From Escherichia coli (GTDB lineage Bacteria; Pseudomonadota; Gammaproteobacteria; Enterobacterales; Enterobacteriaceae): 64,000 nucleotides of DNA. The position numbers and the translations under genes were made by a program. Positions 32,169 through 55,624 of this stretch are shown piece after piece. The stretch lies in the NCBI RefSeq assembly GCF_048403405.1, contig NZ_CP183129.1; one strand, 5' to 3'. Positions within the stretch are counted from its first letter, which is position 1. Every line of letters begins with the position of its first letter. The notes beneath the pieces were generated by a model. That model was not told the DNA's origin and made no database searches. It saw nothing but the letters and a program-made list of their open reading frames with translations.

Positions 32169-32245
<77 letters not shown>

Positions 32246-32279
32246 TCACCGTACTGCTTTTACTTCATCAAATTTTGAT

Positions 32280-32356
<77 letters not shown>

Positions 32357-32389
32357 TCACCGTACTGCTTTACTTCATCAAATTTTAAT

Positions 32390-32466
<77 letters not shown>

Positions 32467-36541: not shown

Positions 36542-36772
36542 ATGATGAAAAAGACTGCCGCAATTATTTCTGCCTGTATGCTGACTTTTGCCCTGAGCGC
36601 CTGTTCCGGTTCGAACTATGTGATGCACACCAATGACGGACGTACCATCGTCTCTGACGGCAAACCACAGACTGATAACGATACCGGTATGATTTCGTAT
36701 AAAGACGCTAATGGCAACAAACAGCAGATCAACCGTACTGACGTGAAAGAGATGGTCGAACTGGATCAGTAA
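36542..36772 (+). CDS. ygdI: small lipoprotein, DUF903 family (paralog of ygdR)
   Basis: 76-aa ORF with lipobox (LSAC); clearly similar to the product of 2872..3090. Confidence 0.8.
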
Positions 36773-36788
36773 TTCGCGATCGCAAGGT

Positions 36789-36994
36789 AAAAAAAAGCAC
36801 CGCAATTAGGCGGTGCTACATTAATCACTATGGACAGACAGGGTAAATGTACAGGAAGTGAAAAAAGGTAGCTTTGCTACCATGGTCTGAATCGCAGACC
36901 AATTGCAAACACAACAACACAACATCACAACCGTAAGCCAAAAGTTCACCAGAACACGCATTCCGATAAAACTTTTCGTTCCGGCTCAGGAAGT
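36789..36994 (-). ncRNA. gcvB: GcvB small regulatory RNA (GT-rich target-binding region, intrinsic terminator)
   Basis: Reverse complement reads ACTTCCTGAGCCGGAACG...GTTGTGATGTTGTGTTGTTGTGTTTGCAATTGG...GCACCGCCTAATTGCGGTGCTTTTTTTT, which matches gcvB as I remember it; divergent from gcvA. Confidence 0.85.
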
Positions 36995-37122
36995 GCCGCC
37001 ACTATAGGTATTTGCTGGTAGAAGCTCAACGGACAATTTATAATGGCTCAGATTAAAAAAACTAATAGGTTACACAGTGTGATCTAATTGTTAAATTCAT
37101 TTAACATCAAAGTTTAAAAGCC

Positions 37123-38040
37123 ATGTCTAAACGATTACCACCGCTAAATGCCTTACGAGTTTTTGATGCCGCAGCACGCCATTTAAGTTTCACTCGCGCA
37201 GCAGAAGAGCTTTTTGTGACCCAGGCCGCAGTAAGTCATCAAATCAAGTCTCTTGAGGATTTTCTGGGGCTAAAACTGTTCCGCCGCCGTAATCGTTCAC
37301 TCCTGCTGACCGAGGAAGGTCAAAGCTATTTCCTCGATATCAAAGAGATATTTTCGCAATTAACCGAAGCGACGCGTAAACTCCAGGCCCGTAGCGCCAA
37401 GGGGGCGTTGACGGTCAGTTTACTCCCCAGTTTCGCCATTCATTGGTTGGTTCCGCGACTTTCCAGCTTTAATTCAGCTTATCCGGGAATTGACGTTCGA
37501 ATCCAGGCGGTTGATCGTCAGGAAGATAAGCTGGCGGATGATGTTGATGTGGCGATATTTTATGGTCGGGGCAACTGGCCGGGGCTACGGGTGGAAAAAC
37601 TTTACGCCGAATATTTATTGCCGGTGTGTTCGCCGCTACTGCTGACTGGCGAAAAACCCTTGAAGACCCCGGAAGATCTGGCTAAACATACGTTATTACA
37701 TGATGCGTCACGCCGTGACTGGCAGACATATACTCGCCAATTGGGGTTAAATCATATCAACGTTCAGCAAGGGCCAATTTTTAGCCATAGCGCCATGGTG
37801 CTGCAAGCGGCTATTCACGGGCAGGGAGTGGCGCTGGCAAATAACGTGATGGCGCAATCTGAAATCGAGGCCGGACGTCTTGTTTGCCCGTTTAATGATG
37901 TTCTGGTCAGTAAAAATGCTTTTTATCTGGTTTGTCATGACAGTCAGGCAGAACTGGGTAAAATAGCCGCCTTTCGTCAATGGATCCTGGCGAAAGCCGC
38001 TGCTGAACAAGAAAAATTCCGCTTTCGTTATGAACAATAA
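37123..38040 (+). CDS. gcvA: LysR-family transcriptional regulator of the glycine cleavage system
   Basis: 305-aa ORF with N-terminal helix-turn-helix (LSFTRAAEELFVTQAAVSHQIKSLE). Confidence 0.9.
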   Translation: MSKRLPPLNALRVFDAAARHLSFTRAAEELFVTQAAVSHQIKSLEDFLGLKLFRRRNRSLLLTEEGQSYFLDIKEIFSQLTEATRKLQARSAKGALTVSLLPSFAIHWLVPRLSSFNSAYPGIDVRIQAVDRQEDKLADDVDVAIFYGRGNWPGLRVEKLYAEYLLPVCSPLLLTGEKPLKTPEDLAKHTLLHDASRRDWQTYTRQLGLNHINVQQGPIFSHSAMVLQAAIHGQGVALANNVMAQSEIEAGRLVCPFNDVLVSKNAFYLVCHDSQAELGKIAAFRQWILAKAAAEQEKFRFRYEQ

Positions 38041-55213: not shown

Positions 55214-55580
55214 GTCGACAGGGAGTCAGACAACGAAGTGAACATCAGGATGATGACACTTCTGAAGGACACACCAGGATGGTGTTTCAGGGAAAGGCTT
55301 CTGGATGAAGCGAAGAGGATGACGCAGGACGCGTTAAAGGACACCTCCAGGATGGAGAATGAGAACCGGTCAGGATGATTCGGTGGGTCAGGAAGGCCAG
55401 GGACACTTCAGGATGAAGTATCACATCGGGGTGGTGTGAGCAGGAAGCAATAGTTCAGGATGAACGATTGGCCGCAAGGCCAGAGGAAAAGTTGTCAAGG
55501 ATGAGCAGGGAGCAACAAAAGTAGCTGGAATGCTGCGAAACGAACCGGGAGCACTGTGAATACAGTGCTCCCTTTTTTTA
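55214..55580 (+). ncRNA. csrB: CsrB regulatory RNA (CsrA-sequestering; many GGA motifs; strong intrinsic terminator)
   Basis: Starts GTCGACAGGGAGTCAGACAACG...; roughly 18 CAGGA(U/A)G-type GGA motifs counted by eye; ends with hairpin gggagcactgtgaatacagtgctccc plus T8. Confidence 0.9.
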
Positions 55581-55624
55581 TTCCTGCTATCCTTCGCGGC
55601 AGTTTTTCTTATTGAGGTTGCTTT

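Follow-up and report, generated by a model that had tools for sequence, protein, structure and literature searches.

The first description of the sRNA gene gcvB of Escherichia coli is reportedly that of Urbanowski, Stauffer and Stauffer (Mol Microbiol 2000), and the GcvB RNA of Salmonella is said to have been studied by Sharma et al. in 2007 and 2011. Expression of gcvB responds to glycine through activation by GcvA and repression by GcvA together with GcvR (PMC1557403, PMC9299463). Two terminators, t1 and t2, have been described for both E. coli and Yersinia pestis (PMC1557403); ~90% of the E. coli transcripts end at t1, and the 206 nt form is needed for the repression of oppA and dppA (PMC1557403, citing Urbanowski 2000). 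According to data on the K-12 RNA, GcvB pairs with its targets in an Hfq-dependent manner via a region called R1 and, for some targets, via R2 or R3 (PMC9299463, PMC3536696). The pairing with phoP involves GcvB nt 148–174 (PMC3536696). GcvB is also the target of the sponge RNA SroC, which derives from gltI, pairs at two GcvB sites, SL1 and R3, and triggers the degradation of GcvB by RNase E (PMC9299463); a further study on Salmonella GcvB is that of Miyakoshi et al. 2015 (PMC4474525).

Here, we describe the gcvB locus in a 64 kb stretch of E. coli DNA (hereafter the window). It shares with the locus of E. coli K-12 MG1655 all 206 nt of the RNA, the neighboring genes and the lengths of the two spacers (128 nt and 16 nt), and differs from it by two substitutions in the gcvA leader (37075 and 37118) and by ~2% divergence in the flanking genes. 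With GcvB of Salmonella enterica it has in common the five-stem architecture, the regions R1, R2 and R3 and the divergently transcribed gcvA; there are 10 nt differences between the Salmonella and E. coli GcvB RNAs (PMC9299463), and a Salmonella record is 95.1% identical to the window gcvB over 206 nt. The gene phoP is regulated by GcvB in E. coli but apparently not in Salmonella (PMC3536696; PMC9299463). GcvB of Y. pestis is likewise divergent from gcvA, controlled by GcvA and GcvR and equipped with two terminators, yielding RNAs of ~130 and 206 nt (McArthur et al. 2006, PMC1557403); however, it is ~77% identical, and its t1 has 2 additional bp ahead of the U run, with a lower termination efficiency of ~44% versus ~90% in E. 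coli (PMC1557403). In the alignment presented below, the Yersinia rows are identical to the window in R2 and R3, whereas their R1 lacks 8 nt that are present in Enterobacteriaceae. The GcvB RNAs of Pasteurellaceae (e.g., Pasteurella multocida, PMC5900567) are also encoded divergently to a GcvA homolog, which is 46–65% identical to the window GcvA, and have the R1 core, R2, SL2, SL3 and the terminator in common with the window, but they are 172–201 nt long, their SL1 is unalignable and their R3 identity is 0.25.

Results

Identity, neighbors and annotation of the locus

When the whole 64 kb window was scanned against Rfam 15, five matches passed the gathering thresholds. One of them is the match to RF00022 (GcvB) at 36994→36789 on the minus strand, with 199.0 bits (E 1.1e-46, cmscan; gathering score 42), which covers model positions 1–204 of 204 and is untruncated. 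The first-pass annotation, made from the letters alone, had placed gcvB at exactly this interval and on this strand and had proposed a covariance-model search and a comparison with K-12 as checks. The search gave a strong full-length match instead of the contrary outcome that it had named, the lack of a significant match, and the comparison gave identity at 206/206 nt with the curated MG1655 ncRNA gcvB (b4443; NC_000913.3 2942696–2942901, between gcvA, b2808, and ygdI, b2809), so that the element was rightly called a known one. The isolated 206 nt RNA folds at −62.1 kcal/mol, corresponding to z = −3.6 against dinucleotide shuffles.

The 5,001 nt around gcvB align with K-12 without gaps at 98.04% identity, and none of the 98 differences falls into ygdI, the 16 nt spacer or gcvB; at the local divergence rate, the probability of 206 difference-free nt is ~0.017. 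The gcvB sequence is present in 5,425 of 5,426 complete E. coli genomes, with an identity of ≥99% in 5,389/5,425 over gcvB compared with 211/5,425 over the 5 kb segment, and six clinical or fecal E. coli strains are 100% identical to the window over 5 kb.

Some records deviated from this picture. No gcvB match was found in 1 of the 5,426 complete E. coli genomes, and a few genomes had matches in two places. One place was labeled as being on a plasmid, and PLSDB returned 9 hits. As these records are 0.57–5.4 Mb in size, they are chromosomes or chromosome fragments mislabeled as plasmids, and the existence of a plasmid-borne gcvB was rejected.

The location of gcvB between ygdI and gcvA, divergent from the latter, was borne out by family matches for both neighbors, which are encoded on the opposite strand (Table 1). 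The gcvA gene is intact and full-length, and csdA and ygdD flank the ygdI-gcvB-gcvA segment. On the other side, ygdI is convergent with gcvB, and its TAA stop codon (36770–36772) is separated from the gcvB 3′ end by 16 nt (36773–36788). The earlier statement that the gcvB terminator abuts the ygdI stop is a fair wording, although the two elements are 16 nt apart and do not touch. The gcvA ATG is 128 nt from the gcvB +1, and both spacings are the same as in K-12. We regard ygdI as a neighbor that stands outside the gcvB system.

That ORF-based annotation misses this gene, as had been anticipated, is illustrated by NZ_CP128875.1, a RefSeq record that is 100% identical to the window over 5 kb and in which PGAP gives no feature between ygdI and gcvA. 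Among the best 15 E. coli matches to the 206 nt query, the annotated feature under the match was "none" in all cases.

The window contains other non-coding RNA genes as well. A full-length CsrB sRNA is located at 55223–55582 (+; RF00018, 382.9 bits, model 1–356 of 356) and is another known ncRNA that would escape ORF-based annotation. At 32169–32466 (−), there are three tandem tRNA-Met (CAU) genes ~110 nt apart (Rfam 61.4 bits each), an arrangement that fits the metZWV initiator-tRNA cluster of K-12.

Table 1 Features of the gcvB locus, in window coordinates and, where applicable, RNA positions.
Feature	Window position	Strand	RNA nt	Basis or remark
gcvB gene, 206 nt RNA	36789–36994 (+1 at 36994, 3′ end at 36789)	−		RF00022 match; K-12 identity
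SL1, 5′ stem-loop	36936–36986	−	9–59	Rfam consensus structure; covariation
R1, G/U-rich linker and main seed	36902–36935	−	60–93	Unpaired in Rfam consensus; role per PMC9299463
SL2	36883–36901	−	94–112	Rfam structure; RNAalifold; covariation
SL3 of t1, internal Rho-independent terminator	36881–36867	−	114–128	Terminator scan
U6 of t1	36866–36861	−	129–134	Terminator scan
R2, single-stranded, CACUUCCUGUACAUUU	36845–36860	−	135–150	Conservation; role per PMC9299463
R3, seed in SL4	36821–36847	−	148–174	PMC9299463, PMC3536696
SL5 hairpin of t2, final Rho-independent terminator	36817–36796	−	178–199	
U tail of t2	36795–36789	−	200–206	
gcvB promoter	37001–37029 (−35 TTGAGC 37029–37024, 17 nt spacer, −10 TATAGT 37006–37001)	−		Promoter scan; conserved
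Probable GcvA operator, dyad ATTAAAAAAACTAAT	37052–37066	.		T-N11-A (T37053...A37065) with CTAAT at 37062–37066
Perfect TATAAT	37039–37044	+		Retained in each of the 22 genera; 10 bp separate it from the gcvB −35
46-codon ORF, MRVLVNFWLTVV... / MRVLVNFWLTVVMLCCCVCNW...	36961→36821	−		Mechanical ORF list
ygdI	36545–36772	+		NF033216 YgdI/YgdR lipoprotein at 113 bits; DUF903 (PF06004); same position as K-12 b2809
gcvA	37123–38040	+		NF008352 GcvA, 512.8 bits vs cut-off 288; Pfam HTH_1 and LysR_substrate; LysR-type regulator

Anatomy of the RNA and its terminators

The elements of the RNA were assigned from the Rfam consensus aligned to the window RNA, with RNA position p corresponding to window position 36995 − p (Table 1). 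The string ACACAACAACACAACATCACAAC, which had been quoted as the complement of the GU-rich R1 seed, is unique in the window (36909–36931 on the + strand; 0 matches in 100 shuffles), and its complement is RNA nt 64–86, GUUGUGAUGUUGUGUUGUUGUGU, which is the R1 core, in line with that reading. The residues G156, G160 and C162 of the window RNA are those mutated in the R3 studies of PMC9299463.

A simple terminator scan of the minus strand yielded two sites, SL3 followed by TTTTTT and SL5, a hairpin of 8 pairs, 6 of them G-C, followed by the U run that ends at 36789. The positions of these two terminator-like hairpins coincide with those published for t1 and t2. A 3′ terminator with a long U tail, as seen here, is the usual Hfq-binding module of this class of sRNAs.

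The position of t2 raises the question of a role for the neighboring gene. The ygdI stop is followed, at a distance of 16 nt, by this hairpin, and the scan found no terminator-like site on the + strand after this stop (36773–36830), the sole hairpin there being gcvB t2, which might also stop ygdI transcription. One could consequently regard the whole element as a cis-acting part of a neighbor, either as the ygdI 3′ UTR and terminator or as an antisense or leader element of gcvA. We consider this extremely improbable, since ygdI and gcvA are on one strand and the promoter, both U tracts and the Rfam match all on the other, and since the element stays beside gcvA in the listed loci from Morganellaceae and Pasteurellaceae, in which no ygdI homolog was detected at this position. 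Read on the + strand, moreover, the t2 hairpin has A8 before it and ACATTAATCAC, not a U run, after it, and an incidental function as a bidirectional terminator would add to the function as an sRNA and not replace it. In the absence of a + strand terminator after ygdI, transcription of this gene may run antisense into gcvB or use the t2 hairpin inefficiently.

Promoter and control region

The GcvA consensus has been described as T-N11-A containing CTAAT (PMC3658693). By its fit to this consensus, the dyad ATTAAAAAAACTAAT is probably the GcvA operator; it is located at approximately −58 to −72 relative to the gcvB +1, which is a normal place for a LysR-type activator, and AAAAACTAAT is invariant in 22 genera. 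The +1 itself (36994) lies 7 nt downstream of the −10 element and agrees with the 5′ end in Rfam and K-12. The TATAAT on the + strand probably constitutes the −10 element of gcvA, which would result in back-to-back divergent promoters.

In an alignment of the intergenic region from 22 genera, ranging from Enterobacteriaceae to Morganellaceae, positions 36985–37071 are nearly invariant, and this block holds both gcvB hexamers, the + strand TATAAT and the dyad; the adjacent gcvA leader (37072–37122) is variable. Transcription of gcvA reportedly starts ~72 nt upstream of the ATG, at about 37051, with a GcvA footprint from roughly −28 to +20 of gcvA; a footprint of this extent would agree with the end of the conserved block at 37071. 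A second CTAAT occurs at 37084–37088 (+) in the gcvA leader; it is outside the conserved block, is unconserved across genera and is probably fortuitous.

Compared with K-12, the 128 nt region between gcvB and gcvA has two differences only, and both of them (37075 and 37118) fall within the gcvA leader, where conservation is poor. These substitutions are outside the promoter and the dyad, which bears on the idea that the window might carry a decayed or silent copy of gcvB, with a promoter or regulation that does not work in this strain. As the RNA is also identical to the functional K-12 gene and gcvA is intact, we give this idea almost no credence.

Distribution and synteny

Species-representative genomes (298 Gb) were scanned with a pattern composed of the 3′ end of R1 and the 5′ end of R2, TTGTGTTTGCA N30–60 CACTTCCTGT, which returned at least 120 loci. 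Among the matches listed, 115 loci belong to Enterobacterales and Pasteurellaceae. The remaining 5 of the 120 listed matches, in Borreliella, Paenibacillus, Flavobacteriales, Porphyromonas and Alteromonas, have no gcvA nearby and were excluded as chance matches; by our own estimate, five is about the number expected for 21 fixed bases in 298 Gb. A GcvA homolog was found in divergent orientation in 100/100 listed loci with at least 300 nt of upstream sequence, compared with 0/5 of the chance loci, and among the matches listed the median distance from the inferred +1 to the GcvA homolog is 129 nt. Among the matches listed, those from Enterobacteriaceae, Yersiniaceae and Hafnia have a convergent ygdI downstream; a ygdI homolog was not detected at this position in the listed matches from Morganellaceae or Pasteurellaceae. 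Since gcvB stays beside gcvA even without ygdI, its conserved partner is gcvA and not ygdI.

The RNA also varied in length. Apical insertions of ~10–30 nt in SL1 were observed in Xenorhabdus indica (L115:5577–5805) and in the Enterobacteriaceae MAG Fux382 (L038:4621–4831), giving RNAs of 229 nt and 211 nt, respectively. In addition, R1 is 8 nt longer in the Enterobacteriaceae rows than in Yersiniaceae, Hafniaceae, Morganellaceae, Edwardsiella and Pasteurellaceae. The extra 8 nt correspond to 36927–36934 (RNA nt 61–68; alignment A1 columns 93–100) and represent a GUUGUG-type repeat unit; the same length difference appears as the 8 nt insert "uuguguug" relative to the Rfam consensus.

Structural conservation and coding potential

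For the analysis of covariation, we used a MAFFT alignment of 45 homologs with <95% mutual identity, which are 55–95% identical to the window. RNA nt 81–91 and 135–144 are invariant in this set because they were fixed by the search pattern, and conservation there is not independent evidence. When the Rfam structure was laid over the 45 homologs, 82.1% of the cells were paired, compared with 36–47% when the 3′ partners were slid by 1–3 columns. Compensatory changes were present in 31/47 pairs, and none of 500 shuffles reached the observed values. By stem, such pairs amounted to 8/8 in SL2, 4/6 in SL3, 5/8 in SL5 and 11/14 in the upper part of SL1, whose basal helix is 97.7% paired over the 45 homologs. 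The SL4 helix is weak (60–66% paired), in agreement with the report that R3 is mostly single-stranded (PMC3536696).

RNAalifold, run without input from Rfam, recovered SL2, SL3 and SL5. SL1 was missed on the MAFFT alignment because its apical part is variable in length and badly aligned; when the Rfam-derived structure was counted on the same alignment, the covariation in SL1 was still seen.

Over all its columns, the pattern-fixed ones included, R2 reaches an identity with the window of 1.00 for Enterobacterales and of 0.93 for Pasteurellaceae; R2 nt 145–150, which are outside the search pattern, have values of 0.99 and 0.80, respectively. For R3 nt 151–172, the identity is 0.99 in Enterobacterales versus 0.25 in Pasteurellaceae.

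RNAalifold also predicted a pairing between R1 and R2, joining nt 74–85 with nt 135–147 (36921–36910 with 36860–36848; A1 columns 106–117 with 185–197). As several columns of this pairing belong to the search pattern, the evidence for it is weak. At the pair G75-C146, 34 Enterobacterales rows have G-C and 10 Pasteurellaceae rows have A-U, which counts as one lineage-level compensatory change, and the single-sequence MFE structure also pairs nt 63–70 with 134–141. Should this pairing form in vivo, it could keep the main seed partly hidden until R1 is opened by Hfq or by a target, in the manner of a self-inhibitory switch. We think such a switch very improbable; if true, it might explain the conservation of R2 although few targets use R2.

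The transcript contains one sizeable ORF of 46 codons, which lies wholly within it and whose ATG is at RNA nt 34, and the RNA could on this ground be taken for an mRNA or a dual-function RNA encoding a small protein. The homologs speak against this reading: a start codon is found at the homologous position in only 14/45 of them, and where it is present, the ORFs span 9–58 codons and differ in their frames and C-termini, as results from frameshifting indels that are tolerated in non-coding sequence. The 46 aa product has no Pfam match, the ATG is situated in the apical loop of SL1 with no evident Shine-Dalgarno sequence on direct reading, and GcvB has been reported to be untranslated (PMC1557403). 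With start, frame and length all unconserved in the only sizeable internal ORF, we rejected a coding role for gcvB, the chance of which we regard as minute.

Predicted pairing with target mRNAs

To compare the regions of GcvB as partners of established targets, every 20 nt window of the RNA was paired with the initiation regions of K-12 dppA and oppA. These short windows replaced full-length RNAduplex runs of GcvB against dppA and oppA, which produced hybrids of more than 100 nt with meaningless energies because this calculation has neither a length bound nor an unfolding cost. For dppA, the best window was nt 62–81, pairing with AACAACAAACAUCACAAUUGG at −30 to −10 of the mRNA at −22.9 kcal/mol; for oppA, it was nt 66–85, pairing with positions −4 to +15 at −21.7 kcal/mol. 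Both windows are located in R1, which beats every other region of GcvB. Shuffled mRNAs averaged about −16 kcal/mol, corresponding to z-scores of −2.8 (dppA) and −2.5 (oppA), and 2/200 and 4/200 of them, respectively, were as good as the genuine sequences. The translation initiation regions (−80 to +30) of 42 long ORFs in the window had a mean of −15.4 and a minimum of −21.6 kcal/mol, the latter for one unrelated region. These predicted energies agree with R1 targeting dppA and oppA and are supportive, if modest and not strong alone.

Discussion

We are practically certain that the locus is the chromosomal E. coli gcvB gene, with its own sigma-70 promoter, GcvA control, ends at t1 and t2 and R1-based target pairing. 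The gene identity, the anatomy of the RNA, the conserved synteny, the structural covariation, the lack of coding potential and the ranking of R1 first among the predicted partners of dppA and oppA were all observed here. Transcription, 3′ ends and regulation in this strain we infer from the sequence identity with K-12, and the control by glycine, GcvA and GcvR, the dependence on Hfq, the repression of targets and the SroC-driven decay would follow from published work on K-12, whose GcvB sequence is identical.

As the RNA is identical to that of the K-12 gene, the published mechanism should apply. Transcription would proceed leftward from the sigma-70 promoter, starting at 36994 and divergent from gcvA. 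When glycine is abundant, GcvA bound to the T-N11-A/CTAAT box would activate the gcvB promoter, and when glycine is low, GcvA together with GcvR would repress it. Stops at t1 (SL3 and U6) would give a short form of ~130 nt and stops at t2 (SL5 and the U tail) the 206 nt RNA, which would remain untranslated. Assisted by Hfq, the unstructured, G/U-rich R1 would then base-pair with many mRNAs at C/A-rich sequences located within or close to their ribosome-binding sites, with R2 or R3 taking the place of R1 for some targets. The expected targets are mRNAs of amino acid and peptide transporters and of biosynthetic enzymes, such as dppA, oppA, cycA and gdhA, and pairing would block their translation and promote mRNA decay. 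Finally, SroC would pair with SL1 and R3, leading to cleavage by RNase E and the removal of GcvB.

The gene described here has been known since 2000 and is an ordinary one, identical to the copy of the laboratory strain, and, being no different from this reference, it adds nothing to the established biology of GcvB. The value of the case lies in annotation. PGAP/RefSeq records of E. coli leave the 350 bp gap between ygdI and gcvA empty, so that scans relying on annotation would call a functional, highly conserved gene intergenic, and a pass with covariance models settles such gaps in seconds. What would be overlooked in this gap is the gene for GcvB, a central post-transcriptional regulator of amino acid and peptide uptake and of metabolism in enteric bacteria, all of which is established.
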